The position numbers and the translations under genes were made by a program. DNA of 26,350 nt. Source: Candidatus Eiseniibacteriota bacterium. GTDB taxonomy: Bacteria; Eisenbacteria; RBG-16-71-46. Under the pieces are notes generated by a model. The model worked only from the letters and a program-made list of their open reading frames with translations, searched no databases and had not been told where the DNA came from. Each line of letters opens with the position of its first letter. The first letter of the stretch is position 1. The stretch covers positions 1 to 26,350 of the forward strand of contig JANMQY010000139.1 of assembly GCA_031370785.1 (NCBI GenBank), given 5' to 3'. Shown one piece after another: positions 248-23,064 of the stretch.

Positions 248-324
248 GGCCCCGTAGCTCAGACGGATAGAGCAGCGGTTTCCTAAACCGCGTGCCACTG
301 GTTCGACTCCAGTCGGGGCCACCA
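248..324 (+). tRNA. tRNA-Arg (anticodon CCT)
   Basis: Acceptor stem GGCCCCG/CGGGGCC, D-arm GCTC...GAGC, anticodon arm GCGGT-TTCCTAA-ACCGC (CCT 282-284), T-arm ACTGG-TTCGACT-CCAGT, encoded CCA end. Confidence 0.97.
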
Positions 325-328
325 ACAC

Positions 329-1324
329 CTAGTCGCCGGTCTTCTCCCGCAGCGCCACCCGCGCCGCTTCCCGCTCGATCAGCTCGTCGGTCACGCGCGC
401 GTATCGCATCGTCGTGCTGAGATCCCGGTGCCCGAGGATCTGCTGGAGGACCGCGAGATTGCCGCCGGCCTCGAGCCAGCGCATCGCGAACGTGTGCCGG
501 CAGCGATGCACATGGAAGTCCGGGATTCCGGTCCGATGCCGGACTCCGCGCGAGAATGATCCAGGGCTTCCGGCCGCATACGGCACCAGCCTGTGTTCGC
601 AACGGGAGATCTCGTCGAGTAGTTCCGGGTTCAGTGGCACGCGACGCAGGCGCCCCGACTTGGTGTTTCCGACCTCGAGCAGCGCGCCACGGACATCGTC
701 ACGCGTTGCGCGGCAAGCTTCGGCCCAGCGCAGGCCGGTTCCGAGGAGGAACCTGAGCACGAACCCAGCATGTCCTGGGACGGCGACGAGCGTCGCGACT
801 TCACGGTCGTTGAACCCGCGTGGAGCCACCTCCGCAATCCGCGGCATGACGCGGACTGGAAATGGTGAGCGCTCGAGCAATCCGACGCTGACCGCCCAGC
901 GTAGAAAGCAGCGCAGGTCGCTCAGCACGTGGGTCACTGTGTAGGGGCTGAGCTTCCAGTGATCCTCGAGCATGAGCCGAAACTCGCGGATTTGGTCGCC
1001 GTTGAGTTCCCTCAGCGTTGTGGGGCTGAGCCAGCCGAGCGCGTAGGTGTCAAAGCGAATCTTCGCGAGCCGCTGGCCCTTGGCATTCCTCGTCGTCGCG
1101 ACATAGGACGCAAGCCAGCGGTATCCCGCCTCGAGCAGGGTGGGACCGTCAGAGGTGCCTTGTTCCGGCGGACCGGGCGTATGGCCCGGAACACGCCGTG
1201 GGCTTGGACATCTGTCACGCGCGGCGACACCTCCGGAAACGATGCCTGCGGGGACCGGGGCAAACGGGTGCGTGGGCAGCGCACTTTCAGCGCACTCTCG
1301 AACCTCACGCACGTCCCGGGCCAT
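329..1324 (-). CDS. Tyrosine recombinase/integrase (~331 aa)
   Basis: Full catalytic set: GLRWAE (R), TKSG (K), HRCRH (HxxR), LGH, TTMRY (Y), plus a core-binding region (LSPYTVTHVLSDLRCFLRWA). ATG at 1324 chosen as start; the track's longer ORF overlaps the divergent gene. Start uncertain. Confidence 0.9.
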   Translation of the reverse strand: MARDVREVRECAESALPTHPFAPVPAGIVSGGVAARDRCPSPRRVPGHTPGPPEQGTSDGPTLLEAGYRWLASYVATTRNAKGQRLAKIRFDTYALGWLSPTTLRELNGDQIREFRLMLEDHWKLSPYTVTHVLSDLRCFLRWAVSVGLLERSPFPVRVMPRIAEVAPRGFNDREVATLVAVPGHAGFVLRFLLGTGLRWAEACRATRDDVRGALLEVGNTKSGRLRRVPLNPELLDEISRCEHRLVPYAAGSPGSFSRGVRHRTGIPDFHVHRCRHTFAMRWLEAGGNLAVLQQILGHRDLSTTMRYARVTDELIEREAARVALREKTGD

Positions 1325-1426
1325 GTCCCCCCGGGCCCCCCTCGAAACCCACGGCCCTCCTTGCACGTATTGCAGGCACGTCCCGCGACACGAGAGGTCC
1401 TTTCGGAGGGGCTTGTCTTGACCGAC

Positions 1427-3169
1427 ATGCAGACTCGACTGAGCGCGATGCCGCCCCTGGAAGTCCCGAACCCCTCGACGGTCGTGTCGGCGTTGGTCCA
1501 GATGCTTTCCCGCCTGGGCGTGCAAGAGGCGTTCGGCGTCTCCGGTGGCGCAATGGCGGCACTATGGGACGCACTGTCATCGAGCCCACTCGGCGTCTAT
1601 CACTTCCGTCACGAGACAGGGGCCGCGTTCGCCGCCATTGAGGCGTGCTTCGCCAGCGGGCGACCGACCGTGCTGTTCACGACCACGGGACCCGGACTCA
1701 CCAACGCGCTGACTGGCATCGTGGCGGCTCGCGAAGAACGAGCGCGCGTCATCGTCGTCTCGGCGTATACGTCCGCGTCCTCCCGGGGCCGGTTCGCGAT
1801 CCAGGAGACTTCGCGCGGCACCTTGCCTCCGTCGCTGTACGAATCCGGACGGCCGTTCCACTTCGCCACCGTTGTCGACGATCCCACGCAACTCGCCGCG
1901 GTCGAGAGGGAGCTCGCGACTGGCCTCCATCGCCGCAGCGGGTTTGTCGCGCATCTGGCGCTGGACACCGAGGCGCAGCGAGCACCTGCGGCCCAACCTC
2001 AGATTCTGTCGCTGGCGGTTCCGATGTCCGCGGAAACACCGCCCCTCGCGCAGGTCGCGGCTTGCATCGATGCGCTGAGCGATGGACCGTTTGCGATCTG
2101 GGTCGGGTATGGCGCACGCGATGCCGCGGCCGAGGTCGCGACGCTCGCCCGCTGCACGCAGGCGCCGGTGATGTGCTCACCGCGCGGCAAGGGGATCTTC
2201 CCCGAGGATGACCCGCTGTTCGTCGGTGTGACCGGCCTGGCGGGACACGCGTCGGTCATGCGCTATCTGGAGGAGTTCAAGCCGCGACGCCTGCTGGTCC
2301 TCGGCTCACGGCTGGGCGAGCCGACCTCGTTCTGGGATCGCCGTTTCATCACGCCTGAGGGCTTCGTTCACGTTGATGTGGATCCGGAAGTTCCGGGCGT
2401 TGCGTTCGGCGCCGCGCCCACGCTCGCCGTTGTCGGGGACGTCGGAGCAACGCTGCGGGCGGTGCTCGCCGACCTGCAACCTTCGAGCGGCGACGCCATG
2501 CCGGAGCTGCCGCATCCGCGCATCGACCGAATCGAGCGGCGCAGTGACGGCCCGGTACGCCCCGAAGCGCTGATGGACGCGCTGCAGGACTGGGTCGTCG
2601 ATCGCAGCGACGCAACCGTGCTGTCGGAGTCCGGCAACTCATTTTTATGGACGACGCATCGGTTGCGGTTCTCCACGCCGCACCGATACCGGGTCAGCAC
2701 CGGGGTGGGGGCGATGGGTCACGCTTCGGCCGGTGTGATCGGCGCAGCGCTGGCCAGCGGGCGCCGGGCGGTGGCGGTTGTCGGCGACGGGGCCCTGCTC
2801 ATGACCAACGAGATCAACACCGCGGTGAAGTTCGATGCGCCCGTGGTGTGGGTCGTCCTCAACGACGGACGCTATGGCATGTGTGCCCAGGGCATGGACG
2901 CCCTCGGGCTCTCGGCCGACGCAGAGATCCCGCAGGTCGACTTCGCGGCGTTCGCACGCGCACAGGGAGCCCGTGCGACACGTGTCGACCACGAGGTGCA
3001 GCTCGACGCAGCTCTGGCAGAGGCAATGGCGGCAGACGGCCCCTTCGTCGTGGACGTTCGCATCGACCCGCGGTGCAAGGCGCCGGCGTCGCTGCGCAAC
3101 GCCGCGCTCGCCGAGAAACTCTCCCTGCATCGCGAGCGGATCTTCCCCTCGCGCGAGGACCCGCGGTAA
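1427..3169 (+). CDS. scyA: ScyA-like thiamine-diphosphate-dependent acyloin synthase (acetolactate synthase family, ~580 aa)
   Basis: FGVSGGAMA, HFRHE (catalytic Glu), TTTGPG, GDGALLM...VLND ThDP motif. Segments such as RGRFAIQETS and LGEPTSFW match recalled cyanobacterial ScyA. GGAGG at 1405-1409; start is ATG 1427 or TTG 1418. Confidence 0.85.
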   Translation: MQTRLSAMPPLEVPNPSTVVSALVQMLSRLGVQEAFGVSGGAMAALWDALSSSPLGVYHFRHETGAAFAAIEACFASGRPTVLFTTTGPGLTNALTGIVAAREERARVIVVSAYTSASSRGRFAIQETSRGTLPPSLYESGRPFHFATVVDDPTQLAAVERELATGLHRRSGFVAHLALDTEAQRAPAAQPQILSLAVPMSAETPPLAQVAACIDALSDGPFAIWVGYGARDAAAEVATLARCTQAPVMCSPRGKGIFPEDDPLFVGVTGLAGHASVMRYLEEFKPRRLLVLGSRLGEPTSFWDRRFITPEGFVHVDVDPEVPGVAFGAAPTLAVVGDVGATLRAVLADLQPSSGDAMPELPHPRIDRIERRSDGPVRPEALMDALQDWVVDRSDATVLSESGNSFLWTTHRLRFSTPHRYRVSTGVGAMGHASAGVIGAALASGRRAVAVVGDGALLMTNEINTAVKFDAPVVWVVLNDGRYGMCAQGMDALGLSADAEIPQVDFAAFARAQGARATRVDHEVQLDAALAEAMAADGPFVVDVRIDPRCKAPASLRNAALAEKLSLHRERIFPSREDPR

Positions 3170-3179
3170 CGGTCACTCG

Positions 3180-5357
3180 ATGGAAAACAACACCTTCGCT
3201 ACCACGATCTACGCCCAGGCACCGGCGACGCGGACGTTCGCGTACTTGCGGCGTCTGCAGAACCTCGATGAGTGGACCCTCGGCAGCCGCATGCTCACGC
3301 GCATCGACGACGACACGTTCATGGGCACAGCATCTGGCTACCAGGCCATGCTGTGCTACCACGTGCGCACGCTCGAGCATCCGCGGCTGTCCGCGATCGA
3401 ATGGCAGTGCGGCTACCGTTATCGCGAGTACTTCAAGCAGTACCCCGTGTTCGTGTTTCCTTCGCGGTATGCGGACCCACACGGCGACGAAGACGGCAGC
3501 TACATCCACTGGGTCAGCGTGATCGATCCCGCACGCCGAACCGAGATGATCATGCAGGGGATCTCGGCCGTGCATCGCTACGAGGCGCGAGGACTCAAGG
3601 CCGCGCTCGAGCGCGGGGAGGGGGCTGAGCGGCCCGCCGCGGGGCGATTGTCCGTGATCTCGGACACGATGTGGGTCGATGCCCCGATCGAAATGGCTCG
3701 AGCGTTCCTCGCCGATCGAGGGGCCCTCGCCCAATGGGCGCCGCTCTTTCGCGCTGTCGACGCTGATGCGGGGTCGTTCCTCGACGAGTATGCGCGGCGT
3801 GTCCAGGTCGAGTTCGCCGCGTGCGATCTCGGCGACTACGTGCTGGTCGAGCAGGACTATGCGTACCCCGATCTCGGTGTGGTGCAGCGCTGCCCGATCG
3901 TCCTGGTGCCGTGCGCTCGCGCCTTCGGCCCAGAGGCGCCAGGGTTCCTGCTCCACCGGATCGCATTCGTCCGCAACGACGGGTCGCAGACGCACGGTCG
4001 CACGACGGCCTCCGAACTGAGCGCGGAGAGCATGGCGATCAAGCGTACGCTCGAGGCGCGCGCGGGGAACCTGACCAGTTTCGCTCGCGGGATGAGCTAC
4101 CGCCCCGATCCCGCGACAACCGAGGACGAGATCATGGCGTCACCACCGGACATCTTCGCACCTGAGTTCGCCGCGGATCCTTACCCGCACTATCGCCGCA
4201 TGCGCGACGAGTATCCCCTGTACTTCCACGCACCCACGCAGGCGTGGATCTTGAGCCGGTACGACGACGTCCGCATGGCGCTGACCAACCCGGCGTTCAC
4301 CACCAGGAGCTATGCCACGCAGACCGAGCCCTTGCTCGGCAAGACGATCATCCAGCTCGACGGACGCGAGCATGCGCTGCAGCGCGGGTTGCTGACGCCA
4401 TCGTTTCGCGAGGGGAGCATTCGAGAGCGCTTCTCGAATCTGATCCGCGACGCCATCGACGAGCTGATCGGCGCGGTCGCATCGCGCGGCGAAGCGGATC
4501 TGATCGCGGATGTGGTCGTGCACCTTCCGGTACGCATCATGGCGGGGTTGCTCGGCTTGCCCGTGCACGACCGCGACCGCTTCCGAACGTGGTACACGGC
4601 CCTCATTCAAGGTGCGCTCAATCTCGCCGGTGACCCTATTGTGGCAGCGGCCGGCATCAGGGCCCGGGACGAGCTCGACGCCTACCTGCGGCCGCTGATC
4701 GTCGCCCGCCGCGAGAGGCCGGGCACCGATCTCATCTCCACCCTGGCGACGACCACGGTCGAAGGCGATCGGCTGACCGACGAACAGATCATCCGCTTCG
4801 CGATGCTCATGGTCTTCGCGGGTGGCGAAACCACGGAGAAGGGGCTCGCGACCACTCTGCGCAACCTGCTCGCGCATCCCGACGTTCTAGCAGCCGTGCG
4901 GCGGGACATGTCGCTGCTGCCGCGAGCGATCGCCGAGTCGTTCCGCTACACCGCCCCGACCCACATGGTGCCGCGTCAGACCAGCGAGGAAGTGCAGGTA
5001 TCGGGTGGACTGCTGCCGGCGGGGGCCGATGTCATGTGCTTCCTCGGCTCGGCCAACCGCGACGAGCGTCGCTTCGCCGATCCCGATCACTTCGACCTCA
5101 ACCGACCCGAGGCCGACCCCAAGCGTGCGTTCACAGGCGCGGCCGACCACCTTGCGTTTGGCGGCGGCAGGCACTTCTGCCTCGGAGCCGTACTCTCGCG
5201 TTTCGAGATCGAGGTCGCGTTGAGTCACATCTTAGACGCCTTACCCGACCTGCGACTCGCCGACGAGACGCCTCCTCCCGATGTCGGGTTGTTCCTGCGT
5301 GGCCCAGCGACGCTTCCGGTTCGGTTCTCGAAACCGACGTTGGAACGAATCTCATGA
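3180..5357 (+). CDS. scyC: Fusion of ScyC-like cyclase/decarboxylase (aa 1-318) and cytochrome P450, CYP134/CypX-like (from Met at nt 4134); 725 aa
   Basis: N-half (MENNTFAT, NLDEWTL, GTASGY, IEWQCG, DAPIEM, AESMAIKRTLEARAGNLTSFARGMSY) follows recalled ScyC end to end. C-half has the I-helix AGGETT, ExxR (AESFR) and heme motif FGGGRHFCLG. No stop codon between the halves. Confidence 0.85.
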   Translation: MENNTFATTIYAQAPATRTFAYLRRLQNLDEWTLGSRMLTRIDDDTFMGTASGYQAMLCYHVRTLEHPRLSAIEWQCGYRYREYFKQYPVFVFPSRYADPHGDEDGSYIHWVSVIDPARRTEMIMQGISAVHRYEARGLKAALERGEGAERPAAGRLSVISDTMWVDAPIEMARAFLADRGALAQWAPLFRAVDADAGSFLDEYARRVQVEFAACDLGDYVLVEQDYAYPDLGVVQRCPIVLVPCARAFGPEAPGFLLHRIAFVRNDGSQTHGRTTASELSAESMAIKRTLEARAGNLTSFARGMSYRPDPATTEDEIMASPPDIFAPEFAADPYPHYRRMRDEYPLYFHAPTQAWILSRYDDVRMALTNPAFTTRSYATQTEPLLGKTIIQLDGREHALQRGLLTPSFREGSIRERFSNLIRDAIDELIGAVASRGEADLIADVVVHLPVRIMAGLLGLPVHDRDRFRTWYTALIQGALNLAGDPIVAAAGIRARDELDAYLRPLIVARRERPGTDLISTLATTTVEGDRLTDEQIIRFAMLMVFAGGETTEKGLATTLRNLLAHPDVLAAVRRDMSLLPRAIAESFRYTAPTHMVPRQTSEEVQVSGGLLPAGADVMCFLGSANRDERRFADPDHFDLNRPEADPKRAFTGAADHLAFGGGRHFCLGAVLSRFEIEVALSHILDALPDLRLADETPPPDVGLFLRGPATLPVRFSKPTLERIS

Positions 5358-5402
5358 ACGCCGGCAAATCGGGATGACGACGCCGCGCGAGGAGAAGCAC
5401 AC

Positions 5403-5465
5403 ATGACTCACAGGACGAACGCTCGGCTCGCCGGCGCCATGCCGCCGCAGAGGCAATCGGCCTGA
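5403..5465 (+). pseudogene. Possible N-terminal gene remnant (DUF4386-like start MTHRTNARLAG)
   Basis: Strong RBS GAGGAG at 5389-5394, then a 20-codon ORF whose first 11 residues resemble recalled DUF4386 N-termini. Confidence 0.3.
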
Positions 5466-5519
5466 CAATGCTGGGCACCGCGGACCTTCTCGTCCGCGGT
5501 GCCGTACGTCGGCCCAACT

Positions 5520-6947
5520 TCAGGATGCGGGTTTGATGTTCTGATTCATGCGGAACAGATTGGTCGGATCGAACTTCGCCTTGAGTTTCGCCAGGCGGTC
5601 GTAGTTGGGACCGTAGGCGCCTACTTGCACGCGCTGCGTCTCGTCCTCGGGCATGAAGTTCACGTACACGCCACCGGTCGCGAACGGGGTCGCTGCGTCG
5701 AACAACTCCCGCGTCCACTTGATGCATTCCGCGTCCTGCGATGATTCTCTCCAACGCGTGTGCACGTTCATGATGAAGTCAATGTCGCGGTGAGGATATG
5801 CAGTGGCGCCGGCCGGAAGCCGATTGACGGCCCCGCCGAGGTGCCCGATGAAGACCTCGCACTCCGGGGTCGGCAGGTGGCCCACCGCGTCGCGCACGAC
5901 GTCGAGGAATCCGTCGTCGAGCTTCTTGAAGTCATGCGACTTCCAGTAGTTCCGGGCACCCGGCGTGAGGAGCGGATCGAAGGCCGTCTGCCATCCTGCG
6001 AACGGGGCCGGTCCGATCACATCCGCAATCGGCTTTCCCAGCGCACGCAGTGGCGCGACCGCCTTCTCGGCCTTCTGAATGTCCCCGATGGCGCACACCG
6101 CAAACACCAGGATCTCCTTGCCATGCACCTCGGGGGGCAGGAACGGAAGCGGCGGAGCCTTGCGCAACACCACCCAGGCCGTGACTTCATCGGGAGCCGA
6201 GGCGACGAAGCGACGGTACCCATCGAGCAGCTCTTTTGCCTGCGAGAACGGATGGACGATGAGGCCCGCGATCACTTGAGGGCCCACCGGGTGAAGCCGG
6301 AACTCGAACGAGGTGACCGCGCCGAAATTGCCGCCGCCACCACGCACCGCCCAGAACAGGTCCGGGTTCTCCTTTTCGCTCGCCCGCTGCAGATTGCCGT
6401 CGGCGGTCACGATGTCCACCGACAGCAGGTTGTCCACGGTGAGTCCGAGCTTGCGGCTGGTCCAGCCAAAGCCGCCGCCGAGCGTGAAGCCTGCAATCCC
6501 GGTCGTCGAGTTGATCCCCAGCGGAGTCGCGAGGCCGAAGGCCTGCGCCTCACGGTCGAACTCGCCCAGCGTGACCCCGGGCTCGACGCGCGCTGTGCGA
6601 GCCGCCGGATCTACGCGCACCGACTTCATCAACGACAGATCGAGCATCAGCCCGCCGTCGCACACTGCGTTGCCCGCGATATTGTGGCCACCACCACGCA
6701 CCGCCAGCAGCAGCCGATATTCCCGGGCCAGCGAAACCGCGCGCATCACATCCGCCGCTCCGGCAGCGCGCACGATCGCCGCCGGCTTGCGATCGATCAT
6801 CGCATTCCAGATCGTGCGGGCGGCGTCGTAGCCCGGCTCGCCGGGCAGGCACAGTGTTCCGCGCAATTCCTTGCGCAGCCCTTCGAGCACCTCGGCCGGA
6901 ATCGATTTCCGGCCTCCATCGAGTGTCTTCAGATCGACTGCGGTCAC
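5520..6947 (-). CDS. FAD-binding oxidoreductase, berberine-bridge-enzyme-like (~475 aa)
   Basis: RGGGHNIAG (His for covalent FAD), GFTLGGGFG, RGGGGNFG, C-terminal YVNF...LKAKFDPTNLFRMNQNI. GTG 6947 is preceded by AAGGAG. An alternative in-frame ATG lies at 7250. Confidence 0.93.
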   Translation of the reverse strand: MTAVDLKTLDGGRKSIPAEVLEGLRKELRGTLCLPGEPGYDAARTIWNAMIDRKPAAIVRAAGAADVMRAVSLAREYRLLLAVRGGGHNIAGNAVCDGGLMLDLSLMKSVRVDPAARTARVEPGVTLGEFDREAQAFGLATPLGINSTTGIAGFTLGGGFGWTSRKLGLTVDNLLSVDIVTADGNLQRASEKENPDLFWAVRGGGGNFGAVTSFEFRLHPVGPQVIAGLIVHPFSQAKELLDGYRRFVASAPDEVTAWVVLRKAPPLPFLPPEVHGKEILVFAVCAIGDIQKAEKAVAPLRALGKPIADVIGPAPFAGWQTAFDPLLTPGARNYWKSHDFKKLDDGFLDVVRDAVGHLPTPECEVFIGHLGGAVNRLPAGATAYPHRDIDFIMNVHTRWRESSQDAECIKWTRELFDAATPFATGGVYVNFMPEDETQRVQVGAYGPNYDRLAKLKAKFDPTNLFRMNQNIKPAS

Positions 6948-7334
6948 CCTGCTGCTCTCCTTTCGTCTCTGGATGGAATTCGCGACTATCTGGCCCCCGG
7001 CGAGAAGGTGGAGATTGGCAGACAATTCGCCGCTCGCGTCGCCATCCGCAGGCGCGAGACTTTGGTCGTGGGGGCAAGGCCACACGTGTCTTACGTGGCA
7101 TTGGTACTGCGGTGACGCGTGATGCGTCAAGGGGGCTCCTGCCTGAAATGACTCCGAATCCACTCGAGGCGTCACCGCTTCAGCCGGCGAGGCGGCGGCG
7201 GTAAGTACGACTCCAAGAACCAGCAAGGCGCAACCTCTCACAAGGCGCATGAGATGTTTCCTCCTTCCCGCCCTACGGGTCGGCACCGATTCTGGTTTCG
7301 GGGCGGGCACTTTTCGGCGAGCGGCGAGCAAAAG

Positions 7335-7358
7335 GGTGCTCCGAATCCTAGGAGCACC
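7335..7358. promoter_or_regulatory. Inverted repeat in divergent intergenic region (possible operator or hairpin)
   Basis: GGTGCTCC (7335-7342) - N8 - GGAGCACC (7351-7358). Confidence 0.35.
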
Positions 7359-7569
7359 TCTCTTCGTTGCCGGAGAGGACCGGCGAGGGGTCACACCAAA
7401 GTACCGTGGACCCATCGGCCCCTGCGACGCATCTTCAATGCTCTCGGGTGTCGGCGACACCAACCTCCTCTTACGGATTCGTGCTTCGCGGCGTGTTGCG
7501 ATCTCGTCGTGGAGCGCAGGTGGCCCTGTAGTTCGCAATGGCTGCAGCTCACAGGAAGGGAGAACGTCC

Positions 7570-8415
7570 ATGAGCACGATCACGATGAAGGATGGCACCC
7601 GGATCTATTACAAGGATTGGGGAACGGGACAGCCGATCGTCTTCAGCCACGGATGGCCGCTCAGCTCGGACGCGTGGGAGGACCAGATGGTCTTCCTGGG
7701 GGCGCGCGGTTACCGCTGCATCGCACACGATCGCCGCGGGCATGGACGATCGGGCCAGCCCTGGACCGGCAACGACATGGACACGTACGCCGACGATCTG
7801 GCGGCGCTTGTCGAGGCGCTGGATCTGCGCAACGCCATCCATGTCGGTCACTCCACCGGCGGGGGAGAAGTCGCGCGCTACATCGGACGGCATGGCACGA
7901 GCCGCGTCGCCATGGCCGTGCTGATCGGCGCGGTGACGCCGCTCATGCTCAAGACGTCCGCCAATCCGGGCGGCCTGCCGATCGAGGCGTTCGACGCGAT
8001 TCGCGCGGGCGTCATCGCCGATCGATCCCAGTTCTTCAAGGACCTGAGCGTTCCGTTCTATGGCGCGAATCGTCCCAGCGCCAAGGTCTCGCAGGGCATC
8101 CGGGACTCGTTCTGGCTCCAGGGAATGCTGGCGGGCCACAAGTCCGTCATCGACTGCATCAAGGCATTCTCCGAGACCGACTTCACGGAAGATCTCAGGA
8201 AGTTCGACGTGCCGACGCTGATCCTGCATGGCGACGACGACCAGATCGTCCCGATCGGCGCGTCGGCGATGCTGTCGTCCAAGCTCGTGAAGGGCTCCAC
8301 GCTGAAGGTCTATCCGGGTCTCTCGCACGGCATGTGCTCGATCAACAAGGACCAGATCAACGCGGATCTGCTCGCGTTCATCAAGGCGCCGGTGCACGAA
8401 GCCGCCCCCAGATGA
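7570..8415 (+). CDS. cpo: Alpha/beta hydrolase, cofactor-free haloperoxidase/perhydrolase family (281 aa)
   Basis: [29 protein letters not shown] nucleophile, [12 protein letters not shown]. Purine-rich RBS before ATG 7570. Confidence 0.93.
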
Positions 8416-14569: not shown

Positions 14570-15301
14570 ATGGCACTCACCAGCGCGCAGATCGACGCAA
14601 TCCTCCTCGCCGAAGCCGGTCACGAGTGTGACGGCTTCGGCGAACATCGCGTCTGCGTGCGAATCGAGGCGATCGCCGAACTGCCCAGCCGCTTCGGGCG
14701 CTTTCAGATCCTCGGCTTCTGGAACAACCGGGACGGCAAGGAGCACGTCGCGGTCATGTACGGCGATGCCTTCGGTGGCGAAGACGTGCCGACCCGGCTT
14801 CATTCCTCGTGTCTCACCGGCGATGCCCTGGGCTCCCTGCGCTGCGACTGCCGCGACCAGCTTGAGTTGTCGTTGCGTGCGATCGCCGGCTTCGAGCGCG
14901 GACTGGTGCTCTACATGCAACAGGAGGGGCGCGGCATCGGGCTCCTCAACAAGCTTCGCGCCTACTACCTTCAGGATCGGGGCCTCGACACCGTGGAAGC
15001 CAACCAGGTGCTCGGCTTTCGCGATGACGAGCGCGAATACTCGGTCGCGGCGCACATGCTCGCGAGCATGAAGGTGAAGTCGATCCGGCTGATGACCAAC
15101 AACCCCCGCAAGATCGAAGAGCTGACGAGCTTCGGCGTGCGCATCTCCGGGCGCCTCCCGCACGTGATCCCGCCGAACGAGTTCAATCGGTTCTACCTCG
15201 AGACCAAGTCGACCAGGTCCGGCCATCTGGGCTTCGAAGGCAAGCCGCGCCTGCTCGAGCAGGGCGAGCCGATTCGCGTCGAGAACGAACAGGGCGACTG
15301 A
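14570..15301 (+). CDS. ribA: GTP cyclohydrolase II (stand-alone)
   Basis: RLHSSCLTGDALGSLRCDC zinc motif, QEGRGIGLLNK, DTVEAN, DEREY, LMTNNPRK, YLETK...GH. Confidence 0.95.
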   Translation: MALTSAQIDAILLAEAGHECDGFGEHRVCVRIEAIAELPSRFGRFQILGFWNNRDGKEHVAVMYGDAFGGEDVPTRLHSSCLTGDALGSLRCDCRDQLELSLRAIAGFERGLVLYMQQEGRGIGLLNKLRAYYLQDRGLDTVEANQVLGFRDDEREYSVAAHMLASMKVKSIRLMTNNPRKIEELTSFGVRISGRLPHVIPPNEFNRFYLETKSTRSGHLGFEGKPRLLEQGEPIRVENEQGD

Positions 15302-15430
15302 TCCCCGACCGCACGGGATCATTGGCACGGAGATCTGAGATCCGCTAGCCTGCCGCACTTCGCCCGCACCAGTCGGGCCTTCCGTTCATCCATCGACGAC
15401 AATTGATCACTCTCAGGAGACGTTGACCAC

Positions 15431-16258
15431 ATGCGTCGTTCCGTTCCCGCCGTCCGAATCCTTCGCTGTGTCGCGACGCGCTTCGTCGCTCTCGCTCTGA
15501 TTCTCTTGATGCTTCCCGCTTCCGCTCGCGCCGACCGGCGCTTCTTCCTTTACACCTATTCGCCTTTCCTCGAACCGCCCGGCGAAATGGAAATCGAGAC
15601 CTGGCTCACCACCAGGAGCGGCAAGCAGGATCCCGGGGTCGGCACCCAGTGGGAACCGCGTGTCGAGTTCGAGTACGCGCTCCACGGCCGGCTCGGAACT
15701 GCGGCGTATCTCAACTTCGCAAAGGATCCGGGCAGCAACCTCGAGTTTCGGTCGCCTTCGCTCGAGCTGATCTACGGACTCGCAGCTCCGGGAAAGATCG
15801 CGGGAGATCCGGCGCTGTATCTCGAGGCGAGCGAGACCGGCGATGAGCTCGAGATCGAAAGCAAGTTGCTGCTCGCTCACCGCGTCGCGCGCTGGGTCGG
15901 CGGAATGAATCTGATTGGCGAGTTCGAATTCCGGCACGACGACAAGGAGCTGCTGCCGGGCGGACGGGTTCTCAGCAACGCCGTCGCTGGGGAAGTCACG
16001 GGCGGAATCGCCTACGAGTTCAGCCGGCGCCTTTCGATCGGCGTCGAGTCGCGGTACCGCTCGGAGCACCCGAACTTCGGCCGCGAATCCGCGGCGCTGC
16101 TCGCGGTCGGCCCGAGCGTCAACCTGCGAATGGGCGAGATGCAGCTCGCGGTCGGCGTGCTGCCGCAGGTGTGGGGGAGCCCCGCCACCAGCGGAAACAG
16201 GAACCTGGAGGGATTCGAGAAGGTTCAGACCCGCGTGATCATGGGAATCGAGCTCTAG
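15431..16258 (+). CDS. Putative outer-membrane beta-barrel protein (DUF6662-like)
   Basis: RBS AGGAG; signal peptide ending ARA-DRRFFLYTY; amphipathic beta-strands (VEFEYAL, GIAYEF); terminal strand TRVIMGIEL. Confidence 0.7.
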   Translation: MRRSVPAVRILRCVATRFVALALILLMLPASARADRRFFLYTYSPFLEPPGEMEIETWLTTRSGKQDPGVGTQWEPRVEFEYALHGRLGTAAYLNFAKDPGSNLEFRSPSLELIYGLAAPGKIAGDPALYLEASETGDELEIESKLLLAHRVARWVGGMNLIGEFEFRHDDKELLPGGRVLSNAVAGEVTGGIAYEFSRRLSIGVESRYRSEHPNFGRESAALLAVGPSVNLRMGEMQLAVGVLPQVWGSPATSGNRNLEGFEKVQTRVIMGIEL

Positions 16259-16262
16259 CGGG

Positions 16263-17627
16263 TCATTCCTCGTTCGTGCGGCGGACCGCTGCGACCTCGT
16301 CGGGCGTCAGCCAGCGTTTGACGATCTTGTCGCGTCGCTCTTCGAGAACGCGCACCAAGTATTCGGTCGCGCGCGGGTCGCTGTAGCGGCCGCTCTCGAC
16401 CGCGGCACGAATGAGGTCGTCCGTGAACGCGGCCACGATCCGCGCGCCCCACTTGATGTCGCGCTCGGTACGCTCATCGAGCGCCGGATTCTGAAGGTAG
16501 GGGCGCCAATTGCCGGCGTCAAAGGTCTGCGAGTCGATGAATCCAACGCTGGTGATTCCCGGATCGACCGAGCTCTCCCACACGTAAGGCGGCAGCGCGA
16601 GAGTTACCGTCGATTTCGCCGTGACCCCGTAGTCCGCCCAGTACTCGTGCCCGCTACGCAACGGTTGCGGCGCGATCGAGGCCGAGCCCAGGCAACCGCT
16701 GAAATCGATCAGATGATGGCGCACGAACGAACGCCCGCCGTCCTTGACGTACATGTCGAGCGTGTTGCGCGCGCTGCAGTCGGTGTGATTGACCCACGCA
16801 TTGATCGCGTACAGTCCGCGAAGCTCGCGGCGCAGTTGATGCGGGATCAGGTCCTCGATGTCGTCCTTGCGCCGCCCCTCGTAGCGCCACTCGCCGAGCG
16901 GTTTCCCCTTGAGGAACCGGCTCGCCACCACGCGGTAGCGTCCATCGGCCTGTCTCGGCACTTCGCTCAGCAGGCTGTCGATGAATCCGGGCGTGATCGG
17001 AACTTTCTGGCCGGCATAGTCGTAGTTCGCATCCTTCCCGATATCGAGATCCTCTCGACGGAAGTACGCGATCGTGTTGTCCGGCACGTTGTAGCCCGCG
17101 GCCCAGTAGAGCTTGGAGACCACCACGTCGGCGCTGGTGGCGAGCTCTGGAAATGGCATGGGATCGAACTTGATCGCGAACCGATCCCCCGCGGAATCCT
17201 TGATCTGGAAACCCTTGGAGACGCCACCGGTCTTCGACTTCACGACCGTCCAGCGTCCCGGAGAGGGGCCGCTGCCGGGGCCCGGGCCGGTCAGCATGTC
17301 CTTGATGCCCACCGGCCGGTAGCCGAGCCGCGGTTGCCACCACGTGGTGGGCAACAGCACCCGGTCCTGATCGTCGATATTCACCGCCTCGCGTGGCTTC
17401 CCGCCCAGTTTGCGCACCAGTCGTGACGGATCCAGACCGCGTGCAATCGGTCGCGAGACCGCCTGCGTGAAGGCGTCGAAGGCATACGACAGATGCGTCT
17501 CGCGGGGCATGGGCACCGAATCCGGCGCGCTCGCGACTGCCGCGGCGGGGCGGGGCAGGAGCAGGGCCGCCGCCACCCCGGTGGCGGCAAGAACCCCCCG
17601 GCGCGCGTTCTCGCGTGCGCGGCTCAT
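16263..17627 (-). CDS. Exported hypothetical protein with atypical kinase-like motifs (454 aa)
   Basis: Signal peptide; GGVSKG loop, AIKFD, ELATSA, HTDCSARN, LIDF in kinase order; start overlaps the upstream gene's stop. Confidence 0.7.
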   Translation of the reverse strand: MSRARENARRGVLAATGVAAALLLPRPAAAVASAPDSVPMPRETHLSYAFDAFTQAVSRPIARGLDPSRLVRKLGGKPREAVNIDDQDRVLLPTTWWQPRLGYRPVGIKDMLTGPGPGSGPSPGRWTVVKSKTGGVSKGFQIKDSAGDRFAIKFDPMPFPELATSADVVVSKLYWAAGYNVPDNTIAYFRREDLDIGKDANYDYAGQKVPITPGFIDSLLSEVPRQADGRYRVVASRFLKGKPLGEWRYEGRRKDDIEDLIPHQLRRELRGLYAINAWVNHTDCSARNTLDMYVKDGGRSFVRHHLIDFSGCLGSASIAPQPLRSGHEYWADYGVTAKSTVTLALPPYVWESSVDPGITSVGFIDSQTFDAGNWRPYLQNPALDERTERDIKWGARIVAAFTDDLIRAAVESGRYSDPRATEYLVRVLEERRDKIVKRWLTPDEVAAVRRTNEE

Positions 17628-19051
17628 TCCACCCCTCCGATCGAGAATCGCAAGCGGGTCGTTTCCGAGCTCCAGTCGAATCCCACCATCGCGAATGGGG
17701 CGAACTCGGTGCGGAAACGCAGCGCGGCTCCGAAAGAGGTCTCGAACGACGTCATCTGCGCCCTGCCGAGATCCGGATACACCCCGCCGGTTTCGGTATG
17801 GAGGTCGAACTCGAGATTCTTCACCAGCGGGTAGATGTAGGAGAGCTTGCCGACGATGAGATCGAGGTCGCGGAAGCGGCCGGGGTCGAATCCCGCGAGG
17901 CCCCCAGCGCCACCAAGCGATGCCAGGTCACTGACGAGGAAAGTGCCGCCGCCCGTGTCCAGCCTCTGGTCGACCGCCGTGACCTCGAGCCGCAGCGTGC
18001 GAGGATCGCGCCCGAATGATGCGCCGGCTTCGGCGCGATAGGTCATGCGACTGAACGAACGGGCGCGGCTGTGCGCGTCCTTGAGCGCGAGCGCTTCGAT
18101 CGACCGGTCGTAGCGCTCGGCCTCGATCGACGCGTGCCAGCCGCGTGACCAGTGAGGCATGCCCGAGCGCGCATCGTGAGAAAGCCGCGCGCCATAGGTG
18201 AGGTGTTCGACGCGCCGGTCGATCGAGCCCGAGGCCTCGGTCGGATGGACCACCTCGAATGAAGGACGGTCGGAGTCCCGGCCTCTGGTCACGAATGTCA
18301 CACGTGGGCCCGCCCATGCGCTGACCTGTGTGGCCGGAACCGGCGCCAGCGTGTCGGTTGCAATCAGGGATTGGAATCCCTGGAGCTTGGTCGCGCTTCC
18401 GCTCGGGGGCCACGATACGAACAGCTTCGCGGACTCCGAGCGAGCGGCGTAGGCCGACGCCCCCGAGCGTGGCGCGCCGAGCCCGGGCCCGAAGTAGGGC
18501 TCGCGCGGACGCCATTCCGAGGTGTAGATCGCGTTGAGCGGGCCGGCGAGCGCGCCGACGCGCTCGCGGTTGTACTGGTTCGTGGTCGCGGCGACCTCGC
18601 CGAACAGATGGCGACCGATCTGAGGTGGCTGCCAGCGCGCCTCGCCTCCCAGCCCGGCGCGATCACCGAGCGAGGCGGGGGCCACCGAGACCCCGAGCGC
18701 CCCCTGTCGCGCAAACAGGAGGAGAGCCCTGGCGACGAGGTCCGCCTGCTCCGTGTAGACCATGGTCTGCTCGGCGGCGCGATTCAACACGGTGAGCGGA
18801 AGCGTCACGACCTGCCCGGGAAACCTCATCGCCATCTCCCAGGGCTTGGCGGCGGGCACGGGCTCGCGAGGGATCGAATCCGTGGGGGCCACAGGTGGCC
18901 TGCGTGGCGGCGGATTCCATGGCGGAGCGGTGGATGCGCGCAGGCTCCGGCCCGCGTAAGAGGAGTCGCTCCCGGCTGCCATCGCTGGTTCCGGCAACGC
19001 GATCAAGGCGAGCGGGAGCGCCAGGCCGGTCAGAAGACGGGAGACGGTCAT
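17624..19051 (-). CDS. BamA/TamA (Omp85)-like outer-membrane protein (475 aa)
   Basis: Signal peptide; LGGAGGLAGFDPGRFRD resembling the Omp85 loop-6 LGG...(L)RG(F/Y) motif; C-terminal strands ETGGV, SFGAALRF, RLRFSIGG. Confidence 0.7.
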   Translation of the reverse strand: MTVSRLLTGLALPLALIALPEPAMAAGSDSSYAGRSLRASTAPPWNPPPRRPPVAPTDSIPREPVPAAKPWEMAMRFPGQVVTLPLTVLNRAAEQTMVYTEQADLVARALLLFARQGALGVSVAPASLGDRAGLGGEARWQPPQIGRHLFGEVAATTNQYNRERVGALAGPLNAIYTSEWRPREPYFGPGLGAPRSGASAYAARSESAKLFVSWPPSGSATKLQGFQSLIATDTLAPVPATQVSAWAGPRVTFVTRGRDSDRPSFEVVHPTEASGSIDRRVEHLTYGARLSHDARSGMPHWSRGWHASIEAERYDRSIEALALKDAHSRARSFSRMTYRAEAGASFGRDPRTLRLEVTAVDQRLDTGGGTFLVSDLASLGGAGGLAGFDPGRFRDLDLIVGKLSYIYPLVKNLEFDLHTETGGVYPDLGRAQMTSFETSFGAALRFRTEFAPFAMVGFDWSSETTRLRFSIGGVE

Positions 19052-19231
19052 GGAAGACCACTATCCGGGAAACCGCGTCCAAGTCAACCCGGGAATCGGC
19101 GGCGCAGGCCGGGCCGAGAGGGGCGTCCCGCATTTCGCGCACAAGCTCGCTGGGAGCGCTGCGCCCGATCGCATAGGATGACGCGGCGTCATCCCACATC
19201 TCTTGGCGAACGGCCGGGGCACATCGAACCC

Positions 19232-20281
19232 ATGCGTGAGTGGCTGAGCCAGGCGCTCGAGCAGACGAGAGCCGCATTCGTCGCGCTCCTGCTGGGTGCG
19301 CTCCTGCTCTACGCGCTGTGGCCGTGGCTCTCGGGTCACGCGCGCGCCTCGGCGCCGCGCACCCTGGTGTTCTACGGCTTCAGCATTCTGGACCATGCGA
19401 TCACGCGCGACGTCTTCCCCGCGTTCCAGAGGCGCTGGCTCGCGCGCACCGGCGAGAACATCGAGTTGATCTCTTCGTTCGCCGGCTCGGGCACGGTCAC
19501 CAATCAGATCATCATGGGCGTTCCGGTGCAGCTCGCTTTGCTCGCGCTCGAGGCCGACGCCGTAAGGCTTGCGGATGCCGGTGACGTCGCACCCGGGAGC
19601 TGGCTTCCGCTGCCCTACTACGGCGTGGTGAATCGCACCCCGATCGTGATCCTGGTGCGTTCGGGAAATCCGAAGGGCATCCACGACTTCGCGGATCTCG
19701 CCCGTCCGGGCGTGCGCGTCGTGCATCCCGACCCGCTCACCTCGGGCGCCGCGAACTGGGCGATCCTGGCCGAATACGGCGCGGGGGCCCGCGCGCACCC
19801 CGGCGATCCCGACGCGGGGCACGATCTGCTGCTCGGAATCTGGAAGAACGTGGTCGCACAGGCCGCATCGGCGCGTGCCGCGCGCACTCAGTTCGACCTC
19901 GGCTTCGGTGACGCGCTGATCACCTATGAGCAGGAGGGACTCTGGGACCGCGCGCGCGGCCGACTGCACGGCGAGATCGTGTATCCTCGCAGCACCATCT
20001 TCACCGAGCACACGCTGGTCGTCGTCTCGAAGAACGTCGCGAGCAACGATCGCGCGCTGGTCGACAGCCTGGTTGCGTTCCTGTGGTCGGTGCCGGCGCA
20101 GCAGATGTTCGTTCGTAACGGTTTTCGTAGCGTGAACCAGAGTCTGGCGGATGCCGACACGACTTTCCACAGGATCGAGGACCCGTTCTTCGTCGCCGAT
20201 CTCGGCGGATGGGAGCGCGCCCGCCCTGGGATCGTCGAAGGCGTGTGGCGCCGGCGCGTGTTGAAGGAGCTGGGCCGATGA
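19232..20281 (+). CDS. sbp: Sulfate/thiosulfate ABC transporter substrate-binding protein (Sbp/CysP family)
   Basis: SSFAGSG, LVRSGNPKGIHDFADL, PDPLTSGAANW, GDALITYEQE, DLGGW; N-terminal hydrophobic segment. Confidence 0.87.
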   Translation: MREWLSQALEQTRAAFVALLLGALLLYALWPWLSGHARASAPRTLVFYGFSILDHAITRDVFPAFQRRWLARTGENIELISSFAGSGTVTNQIIMGVPVQLALLALEADAVRLADAGDVAPGSWLPLPYYGVVNRTPIVILVRSGNPKGIHDFADLARPGVRVVHPDPLTSGAANWAILAEYGAGARAHPGDPDAGHDLLLGIWKNVVAQAASARAARTQFDLGFGDALITYEQEGLWDRARGRLHGEIVYPRSTIFTEHTLVVVSKNVASNDRALVDSLVAFLWSVPAQQMFVRNGFRSVNQSLADADTTFHRIEDPFFVADLGGWERARPGIVEGVWRRRVLKELGR

Positions 20282-21126
20282 GAGAGTCGGACGAGGCCCC
20301 GCTGGATCCGCCGATCGTCCGCGCCCCGAGCCCCGGCGTGTTCGTGCCGGTCGGGCTGCTGGTCCTCGTGCTGCTGCCGCTGCTGATGATGCCGCTCGCG
20401 GCGGTGTTCGTGTTCGCGTTCCGCGGCGGCACCGATGCGTTCCGCGAGGCCCTGGCGGGGAAGGAATCCCAGTTCGCGCTTCGCTTCAGCCTGTTGATCG
20501 CGTTCGCGACCGCGGCGGTGAACTCCGTGCTCGGCACGTTCGCGGCCTACGTGCTGAGCAAGTTCCGCTTCCCCGGGCGCGGCGCGCTCACCACCATCGT
20601 CAATCTGCCGATCGCGATCCCGACCGTGGTGGTCGGCACCTCGCTGCTGCTGCTGTGGGGGCCGATCGGGTTGCTGGGCCGCACCCTGGAGCCGCTCGGG
20701 CTGCAGCCGATGTTTGCTCCGATCGGAGTTCTGCTCGCGCACCTGTTCGTGACCTTCCCCTACATGCTCGGCACCGTGAAGCCGCTGCTCGACGAGCTCG
20801 AGGTCACGTATGAAGAGGCCGCGGCGACGATCGGGGCTTCGCGCATGCAGACCTTCTGGCACGTCACGCTGCCCGCGCTGCGCGGCAGCATCTTCACCGG
20901 AGCGCTGCTCACCTTCGCGCATTCGCTCGGGGAGTTCGGGGCGACGGTGCTGGTGTCGGGCAACCTGCGCCTGCGCACGCAGACCGCTCCGCTCTACATC
21001 TTCGCGCAGTTCGAGGCGGGCAATCTCGCCGCGGCCAATGCGGTCGCGGCGGTGCTCGCCACGCTGTCGTTCGTCATCTTCTTCCTGCTGCTCAACATGA
21101 CCCGGCGCGCAGAGCGCCACACGTGA
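20278..21126 (+). CDS. cysT: Sulfate ABC transporter permease (CysT/CysW family)
   Basis: ATGA overlap with sbp; FRFPGR, LPIAIPTVVVG, EEAAATIGAS EAA motif, SLGEFGA. Confidence 0.87.
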   Translation: MRESDEAPLDPPIVRAPSPGVFVPVGLLVLVLLPLLMMPLAAVFVFAFRGGTDAFREALAGKESQFALRFSLLIAFATAAVNSVLGTFAAYVLSKFRFPGRGALTTIVNLPIAIPTVVVGTSLLLLWGPIGLLGRTLEPLGLQPMFAPIGVLLAHLFVTFPYMLGTVKPLLDELEVTYEEAAATIGASRMQTFWHVTLPALRGSIFTGALLTFAHSLGEFGATVLVSGNLRLRTQTAPLYIFAQFEAGNLAAANAVAAVLATLSFVIFFLLLNMTRRAERHT

Positions 21127-21174
21127 CGCGCCTCGCTTTGATCCCGCGCGGTTTCCGCGGCCGGCCACGGGCAC

Positions 21175-23064
21175 ATGTCCATACGCATTGAGAATCTCGA
21201 CAAGCGCTTCGGCGCTCAGGTCGTGCTCGAGCGGATCTCGCTCGAGGTGGCCGAGGGCGAGCTGTTCGTGCTGCTCGGCGCGAGCGGCAGCGGCAAGAGC
21301 ACGCTGCTGCGCGTGGTCGCCGGGCTCACCATGCCGGATCGAGGCCGGGTGCTGCTGGACGGGCGCGATGTGACCACGCTGCGCGCGCAGCAACGCGGCA
21401 CCGGGTTCGTGTTCCAGAACTACTCGGTCTTCCGCCACATGAGCGTCGGGCAGAACATCGAGTTCGGACTCAAGCTGCGCAAGGTCCCGCGCGCCGAGCG
21501 CGCGCGGCGCTGCGACCAGCTCCTCGATCTGGTCGGCCTGCCGGGATTCGGCAGCCGCGATGCCGCGCAGCTCTCGGGCGGACAGCAGCAGCGGGTCGCG
21601 ATCGCCCGCGCGCTGGCCTACGAGCCGCGGGTGCTGCTGCTCGACGAACCGTTCGGCGCGCTCGACGTGCGGATCCGCACCCAGCTGCGCCGGAGCCTGC
21701 GCGAGATCCAGGAGCGGCTGCGCATCACCACGGTGCTGGTCACGCACGATCAGGACGAAGCGTTCGAGCTGGCCGATCGCGTCGGGCTCATGGACCGCGG
21801 CCGCTTGATCGAGGTCGGCCGCGCCGAGGAGCTGTACGCGCGCCCGCGCACACTGTTCGGCGCCACGTTCCTCGGCAGCGGCACGCTGCTGATGGGGCGC
21901 GTCGAGGCGGGCCGCGCGAGGTTTCGCGGCCTCGGACTCTCGGTCGTCCCCGATCAGCCTCACGAGGACGGCGCGCCCGCGCACCTGCTGGTGCGCCCCG
22001 AGGATCTACAGGTCTCATCGGATGCGATCCCCGACGATCTGCCGGAGCTCGGGAGGGGAACCGTGGTCGAGGAGAGCTTCGCGGGCGCGGTCCGGCGCGT
22101 GCGCATCCGGTTTCCGAATCGCGCCGAGGTGCATCAGGCCTCCTCGTCGCGCTCCGACTCGGACGGATTCACGGTCGAAGCCCTGCTCACCGTTCACGAA
22201 CAGCTTCCCGACGGCGAGGTCCGCGTCGCGCTGCGCCGCTGGCATTTCCTCGATCCACCCTCGGCCTCGCTGCTGGTCGCCGATCCCGGGCACGGCTCGA
22301 TCGTTGCGCTCGAGTTGGCGCGCGCGCTCTCCCAGGCACTCGGTGCGAAGGTGACCGTGCTCGGGGTCGCCGTGGACGCGCGTCAGGCCGGGGGTCTGGG
22401 CTGGCGCATCCAGCGCCGCCTGACGCGCGCGCACCTCGCCTCGGGCGAGCTGCGTGTGCGCTACGGCAGCAGCCCATCCGCGCAGATTCTCAACGAGCAA
22501 GCGGAGCTGCTCAGCCAGATGATCGTCGTCTCGTCATCTTCCGTACTCCATCCGCTCATCGACTGGGCGTTTCCGGGCAAGGCGATGCGCCGGGCGCCAG
22601 GCCGCACCGTTCTCGCGCTGATCGAGAGCACCCGCGTCCCGGTGCTGGTGGTGGCGGGACGTCCGCGCGAGCTGAAACACACGCTGGTGGTCTCGACCCC
22701 TGGCGCCGCGGAAACCGATTTCCTGCGCGAGAGCGCCCGGCTGGCTCGCCCCCTGAAACTGGCGGCGACACTGATCGAGACGGGAGAGGAGCGTCAGATG
22801 GCGCGGGGCGAAGATCCATTTGTCGCGCGCGGCATCGAGGTCCGCACCCGCGAGCGCGTGACCGCGCCGGACCCGGGATCGGAGGCGACTGCGCTGCTGC
22901 AATTCCCCTCGGACCTGTTGACGGTGCCGGTGATACGGCGCGCCCCGCATCAGACGAACGAAATCGAACCGCTGGTCGCCGCGCTGCTGGCCTCGGCCGA
23001 CCGGCCGGTGCTGGTGCTACCCGTGGAACGAACCGAGACCTACACCACGACCCGGTCGGACTAG
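21175..23064 (+). CDS. cysA: Sulfate-type ABC ATPase (CysA-like) with C-terminal tandem USP-like domains (629 aa)
   Basis: GASGSGKST, LSGGQQQR, LLLDEPFGALD, VTHDQ; after ~22260 two alpha/beta units ending in TRVPVLVV and ADRPVLVL. Confidence 0.85.
   Translation: MSIRIENLDKRFGAQVVLERISLEVAEGELFVLLGASGSGKSTLLRVVAGLTMPDRGRVLLDGRDVTTLRAQQRGTGFVFQNYSVFRHMSVGQNIEFGLKLRKVPRAERARRCDQLLDLVGLPGFGSRDAAQLSGGQQQRVAIARALAYEPRVLLLDEPFGALDVRIRTQLRRSLREIQERLRITTVLVTHDQDEAFELADRVGLMDRGRLIEVGRAEELYARPRTLFGATFLGSGTLLMGRVEAGRARFRGLGLSVVPDQPHEDGAPAHLLVRPEDLQVSSDAIPDDLPELGRGTVVEESFAGAVRRVRIRFPNRAEVHQASSSRSDSDGFTVEALLTVHEQLPDGEVRVALRRWHFLDPPSASLLVADPGHGSIVALELARALSQALGAKVTVLGVAVDARQAGGLGWRIQRRLTRAHLASGELRVRYGSSPSAQILNEQAELLSQMIVVSSSSVLHPLIDWAFPGKAMRRAPGRTVLALIESTRVPVLVVAGRPRELKHTLVVSTPGAAETDFLRESARLARPLKLAATLIETGEERQMARGEDPFVARGIEVRTRERVTAPDPGSEATALLQFPSDLLTVPVIRRAPHQTNEIEPLVAALLASADRPVLVLPVERTETYTTTRSD

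Follow-up and report, generated by a model that had tools for sequence, protein, structure and literature searches.

A two-gene ScyA and ScyC–P450 cassette in an Eisenbacteria genome as a variant of the scytonemin-type indole-alkaloid cluster

A ScyA-family enzyme and a ScyC–P450 fusion in one operon

The DNA analysed here, called the window, is a whole contig of 26,350 nucleotides (nt) from a Candidatus Eiseniibacteriota assembly (GCA_031370785.1; 3.44 Mb, 100% complete, GC 0.678). Near its start lies a 3.9-kb cassette of two genes, encoding a thiamine diphosphate (ThDP)-dependent enzyme of the ScyA family and a protein in which ScyC is fused to a cytochrome P450 (Table 1). A preliminary description, made from the sequence alone, had proposed a minimal scytonemin-like operon of two co-oriented genes 10 nt apart in a non-cyanobacterial genome. 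The open reading frames (ORFs) bear this out, with exactly 10 nt between the TAA of gene 1 and the ATG of gene 2, and the host is not a cyanobacterium. scyA and scyC stand in one operon, as they do in a scytonemin cluster. The cassette is a real, coherent variant of the scytonemin-type indole-alkaloid cluster, resembling the front half of the scytonemin pathway.

Gene 1 starts with a TTG preceded by GGAGG, an in-frame ATG at 1427 being the alternative. Within positions 1000-5700, neither a sigma-70-like promoter nor a terminator rose above chance. The composition of the two genes (GC 0.686 and 0.659) is not anomalous for the genome.

Table 1 Features of the cassette and of its upstream flank
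Feature	Position	Strand	Basis
ScyA-family ThDP-dependent acyloin synthase (gene 1), 583 amino acids (aa)	1418..3169	+	profiles, alignment, tree
Shine-Dalgarno-like GGAGGGG 5′ of the TTG start of gene 1	1405..1411	+	sequence
ScyC::P450 fusion gene (gene 2), 725 aa, one ORF	3180..5357	+	profiles, homologues
ScyC SRPBCC domain 1, CqsB2-like, aa 1-148	3180..3623	+	model, fold match
Codons of Y88, H132 and E135	3441..3443, 3573..3575, 3582..3584	+	aligned to CqsB2
ScyC SRPBCC domain 2, about aa 154-309	3639..4106	+	model, alignment
Variable inter-domain linker between ScyC and P450	4107..4136	+	pattern over fusions
Cytochrome P450 domain	4137..5357	+	profile, fold, motifs
tRNA-Arg(CCT), integration hotspot adjoining the cassette	248..324	+	
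Tyrosine integrase facing the tRNA 3′ end, start approximate	329..1318	-	
C-terminal end of a second, related integrase, interrupted by the contig start	3..236	+	

The N-terminal half of gene 2 aligns with the ScyC equivalog (NF035924) over the full model (1-312 of 312; aa 2-309), as the preliminary description expected, at 405.9 bits against a cut-off of 400. The pass is narrow, and six of the eight other ScyC-bearing genomes of the phylum fall just below the cut-off. This half is 46-52% identical to cyanobacterial ScyC and retains 97 of the 115 columns conserved across 28 cyanobacterial-type ScyC. Distant stand-alone homologues with 30-45% identity also exist (P0129-P0167), two of them named from Microbispora and Aquabacterium.

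When aa 1-310 are modelled, a tandem SRPBCC (helix-grip) fold is predicted with a mean local confidence (pLDDT) of 95.1. The best fold match of domain 1 among 48,161 chains is the carbazole synthase CqsB2, with Z 17.4 and a root-mean-square deviation of 2.1 over 145 aligned residues at 17% identity (runner-up Z 13.7), and domain 2 matches StfQ (Z 11.5). Foldseek led with BexL, DynU16, StfQ and CqsB2 for the same model, BexL and StfQ being didomain aromatase/cyclases. A single-sequence search of the PDB with the ScyC half gave nothing significant, and a ScyC profile matched CqsB2 alone. Positions counted along the profile alignment place Y88, H132 and E135 at Tyr144, His206 and Glu209 of CqsB2, whose catalytic residues are named as Tyr144, His206, Glu209, Glu105 and Tyr172 in a review (PMC7466098). 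All three are conserved in 90% or more of ScyC sequences, whether cyanobacterial, unfused or fused. We infer that domain 1 is the catalytic domain.

The predicted fold relation between ScyC and CqsB2 is new here; through it ScyC would gain a fold and three catalytic residues open to testing, and scytonemin would be linked with carbazole biosynthesis. The carquinostatin/neocarazostatin pathway (CqsB3/NzsH, CqsB1/NzsJ, CqsB2/NzsI and the aminotransferase CqsB7) likewise combines an aminotransferase, a ThDP acyloin synthase and an SRPBCC indole cyclase, and the Tyr, His and Glu are common to both cyclases. In contrast, the cassette contains no KASIII or acyl carrier protein, and its cyclase is didomain. 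A KASIII partner is missing both from the window and from the conserved gene neighbourhood of P450-type loci. Separately, the protein P0202, a weak sequence match of the ScyC half, is a FabH-type ketosynthase fused to a CqsB2-like domain, and is a probable one-protein carbazole synthase.

The C-terminal half had been called a P450, and its profile match (aa 324-716, with no internal stop in the fusion ORF) comes with intact motifs and a P450 fold: AGGETT with the acid-alcohol pair of the I-helix at aa 547-552, ExxR at 586-589, and the heme ligand Cys667 (5178-5180) within FxxGxHxCxG. These three motifs are kept in 109, 111 and 111 of 111 full-length fusions, respectively. The two halves are joined by a linker of 12-26 aa (pattern matched in 88/111 fusions), and the Met found here at aa 320 is no general feature: 23 of these 88 linkers contain one. 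The fusion suggests that the cyclised product is handed over between the halves, and a predicted template modelling score (pTM) of 0.79 for the full-length model is a weak hint of a fixed arrangement.

A protein search for the fusion scored 8000 candidates and gave 166 matches; among the 119 non-self matches listed, 110 are at least 690 aa long, with 53-90% identity over the full length. A frameshift or assembly artefact was therefore rejected. By sequence (E 1.6e-76) and by fold, the best PDB match of the P450 half is CYP134A1 (CypX, pulcherriminic acid synthase) at about 32% identity, a multi-step oxidase of a small cyclodipeptide, and many fusion homologues carry this name at JGI. However, the P450 keeps the canonical I-helix ETT where CypX has EPA. 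A CypX/pulcherrimin assignment was rejected on the score of the CYP134/CypX model TIGR04538 (296.7 bits, cut-off 500), the low identity, and the lack of a cyclodipeptide synthase nearby. This P450 is the sole P450 match in the genome, and the fusion has no reductase domain.

Gene 1 has three TPP_enzyme domains by Pfam, the catalytic Glu65 within RHE, and the ThDP motif GDGA...LND at aa 456-482. Its NCBIfam scores are 772.6 bits for ScyA (NF035923), 720.2 for the ScyA-related TPP enzyme (NF035927), and 202.4 for the best acetolactate synthase model. Cyanobacterial ScyA is 52-56% identical to gene 1, the ScyA-related paralogues are 45-51% identical, and IlvB is 26-30% identical. In a tree of 31 rows from 60 collected (near-duplicates and long outgroups excluded), gene 1 falls inside the wide ScyA family of ScyA and related acyloin synthases, apart from IlvB and other ThDP enzymes, with support of 100/100; the split from IlvB recurs in two further comparisons. 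Within the family it stands outside the clade of cyanobacterial ScyA and paralogues (100/99). The earlier assignment to ScyA thus holds at the level of the family, but not for the cyanobacterial clade or the curated cut-offs.

Overall column conservation does not discriminate ScyA from its paralogues. At 22 diagnostic columns defined by 13 scytonemin ScyA rows against 4 rows of ScyA-related paralogues of putative function, gene 1 has the ScyA state at 15, including M46, I128, F409, V430, R485 and N561, which favours scytonemin substrates. This is short of proof because related enzymes such as CybE take other 2-oxo acids. Among ThDP relatives with solved structures, BbmA and CsmA stand closest. 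The furanolide clusters (CybE/CybF; CsmA, BbmA) likewise use a ThDP α-hydroxy-β-keto-acid synthase; unlike there, where the partner is the ketosynthase-like CybF, the partner here is ScyC–P450, and the diagnostic columns follow ScyA.

It is scarcely credible that gene 1 is simply the host acetolactate synthase next to an unrelated gene. True, it is the only TPP_enzyme_N protein of the genome, which does have a ketol-acid reductoisomerase. However, besides its low identity to IlvB, there is no IlvD in the genome, the reductoisomerase is present in 43 of 47 genomes of the family while the cassette is in just 6 of 88 others, and the linkage of ScyA and ScyC is kept across phyla. The housekeeping IlvB reading was rejected on the TIGR00118 score (202.4 bits, cut-off 538) and the position outside the IlvB clade. 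The reductoisomerase gene (contig C129, 61258-62160; L136) is an orphan, not in an ilv operon, and IlvB was over the cut-off in 0/89 genomes of the family. As IlvC can act as a ketopantoate reductase, the orphan may serve in that role.

Recurrence, cluster architectures and descent

The preliminary description had proposed searching other genomes for the gene pair, and the pair proves recurrent: ScyA lies upstream in 59 of 61 P450-type loci having at least 300 nt of upstream DNA (P450-type counts, here n=61 and below n=73, are not de-duplicated). Two P450-side patterns run against GTDB picked up 18 loci, whose titles read Eisenbacteria, Acidobacteriota, Ideonella, Alphaproteobacteria, Proteobacteria, one unclassified bacterium, and one ‘Synechococcus’ metagenome-assembled genome (MAG). 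ScyA is immediately upstream in 16 of these, the remaining two being interrupted by contig ends, and the closest titled relatives of the fusion are Ca. Eisenbacteria records. Still, the P450-type family is rare. ScyC matches occur in 9/206 genomes of the host phylum; among 401 genomes in the phylum of G208 (Acidobacteriota by title) the sole match is G208 itself, and 301 genomes in the phylum of G206, the Synechococcus MAG, gave 10 matches, nine at 587-619 bits and eight in canonical scyABC clusters.

Metagenomes were scanned on ScyC alone, and the best 80 of 189 relatives were taken, ranked by likeness to the window's protein and hence biased to its type. Among the 80 loci, 53 have a P450 at least 45% identical without scyB or scyDE, 20 have scyB or scyDE without such a P450, none has both, and seven have neither. 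Of these seven, five are interrupted by a contig end, one lacks a P450 (L101), and one apparently has a ScyB under the threshold.

Three architectures emerge from these loci. Type I is the cyanobacterial scyA-scyB-scyC-scyD/E-scyF-ebo, type II has scyA, scyC and the P450 as separate genes, and type III has scyA with the ScyC–P450 fusion, as in the window. In 73 P450-type loci, the extra genes encode a small SRPBCC protein (19), a PEP-CTERM protein (19), a 220-aa protein (17), a cytochrome c (16) and a class I/II aminotransferase (3, in larger clusters). The window has none of these. Its cassette is not unique, standing at the reduced end of a family of clusters that recurs. The likeness of the 220-aa protein to DUF3108 by ESM features is a lead only.

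Several loci depart from these architectures or carry further genes. A LytTR-type response regulator and a His_kinase stand as a pair up- or downstream of the cassette at L014, L015, L019, L027, L089, L097 and L120, and the kinase alone at L090 and L108; the pair is absent from the window. A DUF4386 protein lies between scyA and scyC or adjoins the cassette at L056, L091, L105 and L097. After scyC, L101 (155-4081) has a gene for a fusion of an SRPBCC protein with the 220-aa protein, and two cytochrome c genes. L055 (5278-9721) and L112 (4681-10388) have a cyanobacterial-type scyA-(scyB)-scyC followed by a carotenoid/lignostilbene-oxygenase-like gene in place of scyDEF. L133 (2253-10436), also of cyanobacterial type, groups a paralogue-like ScyA with scyB, an unrelated P450, an O-methyltransferase and scyC; its P450 is 27% identical to that of the window, pointing to an independent P450 recruitment. 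The Synechococcus MAG holds a fused P450-type cluster (L032, 6120-12500) with no ScyB match and a TAG inside the ScyC match, which is either a transfer into a cyanobacterium or a binning error.

The P450-linked ScyC proteins are on one side of a branch in a quick tree of 107 rows (SH-like approximate likelihood-ratio support, SH-aLRT, 99) and in a careful tree of 36 rows (94/97), in which the fused forms make one clade (100/100). The three ‘separate’ rows within the fused clade of the 107-row tree are interrupted by contig ends. The linked P450s are one family, 54-90% identical. Eisenbacteria and Acidobacteriota sequences are interleaved at 78-90% identity, which points to transfer.

As for the direction of descent, a ScyA tree under LG+G4 nests cyanobacterial ScyA within P450-type lineages, and cyanobacterial monophyly is rejected by an approximately unbiased (AU) test (p 0.006) on a group that was named after the tree had been seen. 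A mixture model with 23 ScyA rows left the base open, and distant ScyC homologues used as an outgroup join, weakly, on the cyanobacterial side. The rooting attempts disagree on the direction.

A survey, as far as its available portion goes, listed 71 cyanobacterial ScyC and one from Methylocaldum marinum, then the sole non-cyanobacterial ScyC in nr, and noted that a close outgroup for rooting ScyC was lacking (PMC9796282, 2022). The M. marinum ScyC occurs with ScyB-like and ScyA-like proteins, with no P450 mentioned in that portion. Variant scy clusters are described within cyanobacteria only in the part available of PMC6939163, and the parts of PMC2726228 and PMC7472256 add nothing further on a ScyC–P450 cassette. 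The literature searched (main full texts, mostly outside subscription journals) describes no ScyC–P450 fusion or cassette and no ScyC fold. NCBI automatic annotation labels some Bryobacteraceae proteins ScyC. In the light of that survey, ScyC had been treated as all but exclusive to scytonemin-making cyanobacteria; the large sister family now seen in uncultured bacteria makes it a weaker marker of scytonemin in metagenomes, and supplies the missing outgroup.

Proposed product and competing readings

In three reports (PMC4870267, PMC6282210, PMC7997468), ScyA joins indole-3-pyruvate and p-hydroxyphenylpyruvate (HPP) to a labile β-keto acid, ScyC cyclises and decarboxylates this to a ketone one (auto)oxidation short of the monomer, and Ebo and ScyE export and dimerise. 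The cyanobacterial scyABCDEF and ebo clusters of the Nostoc punctiforme type, compared via the cyanobacterial loci L047-L054, likewise have a ScyA-family enzyme upstream of a full-length ScyC. In contrast, the window cassette is without scyB, scyD/E/F, ebo, trp/aro copies and the scytonemin two-component system; its P450 is fused to ScyC, and both genes fall outside the cyanobacterial clades.

A tblastn search of the complete assembly, including the window, gave no ScyD/E, EboA or EboC match, in line with the lack of scyDEF and ebo genes noted earlier for the window. TrpE/G, TrpA and chorismate synthase are encoded in the genome, all on other contigs. scyB was not found in the genome, the best matches being 28-29% identical proteins of about 420 aa that we read as the glutamate-dehydrogenase type by their sequences, and no ScyB was over the cut-off in any of five other P450-type genomes. 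Because scyB, scyE and ebo were looked for and not found, this is not a scytonemin cluster, and the best reading is an accessory, cytoplasmic route rather than scytonemin itself.

Our favoured reading, with a probability of roughly 0.56, is that the cassette turns indole-3-pyruvate and an aryl pyruvate into a monomeric, oxidised cyclopenta[b]indolone. Housekeeping aminotransferases, for which the genome has five matches, would supply both 2-oxo acids in place of ScyB; for indole-3-pyruvate, transamination is plausible by analogy with CqsB7 in the carbazole pathway. The ScyA-family enzyme would couple the two into a labile α-hydroxy-β-keto acid, and SRPBCC domain 1 would close the ring onto the indole through Y88, H132 and E135 and decarboxylate it, like ScyC. 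The fused P450, fed by redox partners of the host (three Fer2 matches in the genome), would then desaturate and/or hydroxylate the tricyclic ketone in the cytoplasm to a product like the scytonemin monomer or nostodione, taking the place of the periplasmic ScyDEF/Ebo branch of cyanobacteria. A role as a bioactive small molecule is likelier for such a product than one as a sunscreen in a sheath.

Several observations weigh against this assignment. Gene 1 is under both curated cut-offs (1020 bits for ScyA and 1000 for the ScyA-related enzyme), and retains 229 of 278 ScyA-conserved columns, within the 221-254 of the paralogues. At the other seven of the 22 diagnostic columns, themselves drawn against paralogues of putative function, it departs from ScyA, as in L410 for Thr and Y117 for Cys. 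ScyC domain 2 holds 13 of the 18 departures from cyanobacterial ScyC, among them P188 for His, V264 for Trp and A286 for Asn. The profile match between ScyC and CqsB2 has an E-value of 0.047, and Glu105 and Tyr172 of CqsB2 are without a counterpart in the ScyC alignment. The cassette has no redox partner gene. Since the genome has no TyrA match and no HPP dioxygenase over the cut-off, a dedicated HPP supply is not evident. Finally, conversion of the ScyC ketone to the monomer proceeds by auto-oxidation, with no enzyme required, according to PMC6282210, so this step does not call for the P450, which may have some additional role.

Some of the same observations fit a possible but clearly less probable alternative, in which the logic is the same but the ThDP enzyme uses a different acceptor (phenylpyruvate, a second indole-3-pyruvate, pyruvate, or a branched-chain 2-oxo acid), giving a different indole-fused scaffold. 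Substrates in the ScyA family do vary, CybE coupling ketoisovalerate and HPP according to PMC12395478; the kinship with BbmA and CsmA, the seven deviating columns, the drift of ScyC domain 2 in the fused clade, and the missing TyrA all go with this alternative. On the other hand, gene 1 has the motifs GGAM, ESGNSFxW and STGVGxMGH as in scytonemin ScyA, not as in the ketosynthase-linked paralogues, and no ketosynthase is linked at P450-type loci.

It is unlikely that the P450 couples two monomers into cytoplasmic scytonemin or a like dimer, replacing ScyE and Ebo export. If the monomer forms without an enzyme, dimerisation would be the step needing a catalyst; the P450 and scyDE are mutually exclusive among loci, and the P450 StaP performs aryl-aryl coupling of indoles (PMC7466098). 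However, CYP134A1, the nearest solved P450, does not catalyse coupling, linked genes for export or a sheath are lacking, and a UV-screening role in a non-phototroph is not evident. A joint claim that such a coupling P450 completes a cytoplasmic scytonemin-type dimer route in non-phototrophs, and that the P450-type clusters are the older reservoir of cyanobacterial scyA and scyC, to which cyanobacteria later added scyB, scyDEF and ebo, is speculative and quite doubtful.

Improbable, too, is a catabolic or detoxifying unit with re-purposed enzymes that removes indole-3-pyruvate or environmental indole. Its hosts are uncultured non-cyanobacteria, and the LytTR-type sensor pair or its kinase adjoins the cassette at nine loci. 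Against this, the chemistry of ScyA and ScyC is bond-forming and decarboxylating, and the cassette has neither a transporter gene nor a ring-cleavage gene as a conserved neighbour.

Returning to the monomeric cyclopenta[b]indolone, the enzyme logic of the cassette is already known and the product is our deduction from it. By itself the cassette leaves the late steps of scytonemin synthesis in cyanobacteria unexplained, because the scy clusters there lack this P450. What it holds out is a probable new indole alkaloid, along with an uncharacterised P450 family that would act on a scaffold with poorly defined late oxidation, and its two-gene size makes direct expression possible.

Genomic setting and neighbouring genes

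Converging tyrosine integrases flank the tRNA-Arg(CCT) next to the cassette on both sides (Table 1). Two relatives, L019 and L020, have the cassette at the same tRNA, and the remaining relatives have unrelated neighbours. When seven loci were compared at the DNA level, the main common block was about 1406-5340 with 76-88% identity (gene 2 only for L056). Within the host family, 6 of 88 other genomes have the cassette, and the one same-genus genome (88% complete) is without it. The cassette is accessory and probably mobile. No ScyC match was found in PLSDB plasmids.

No attachment-site duplicate of the tRNA 3′ end was found in the window, the one exact match being the tRNA itself; matches with two mismatches number three against 1.46 expected. 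At L019 (902-4009), 13 bp of the tRNA 3′ end occur a second time. Contig C49 of the host genome holds another tRNA-Arg(CCT), preceded by two 39-bp copies of the 5′ half of that tRNA.

Downstream, a BBE-like FAD oxidoreductase (minus strand) and an alpha/beta hydrolase adjoin the cassette at 5520-8415, neither of which is conserved next to it at other loci. Further along, and unrelated to the cassette, 14570-23064 contains GTP cyclohydrolase II, two unassigned ORFs on the minus strand (16263-19051) and a set of genes for a sulfate-type ABC transporter.

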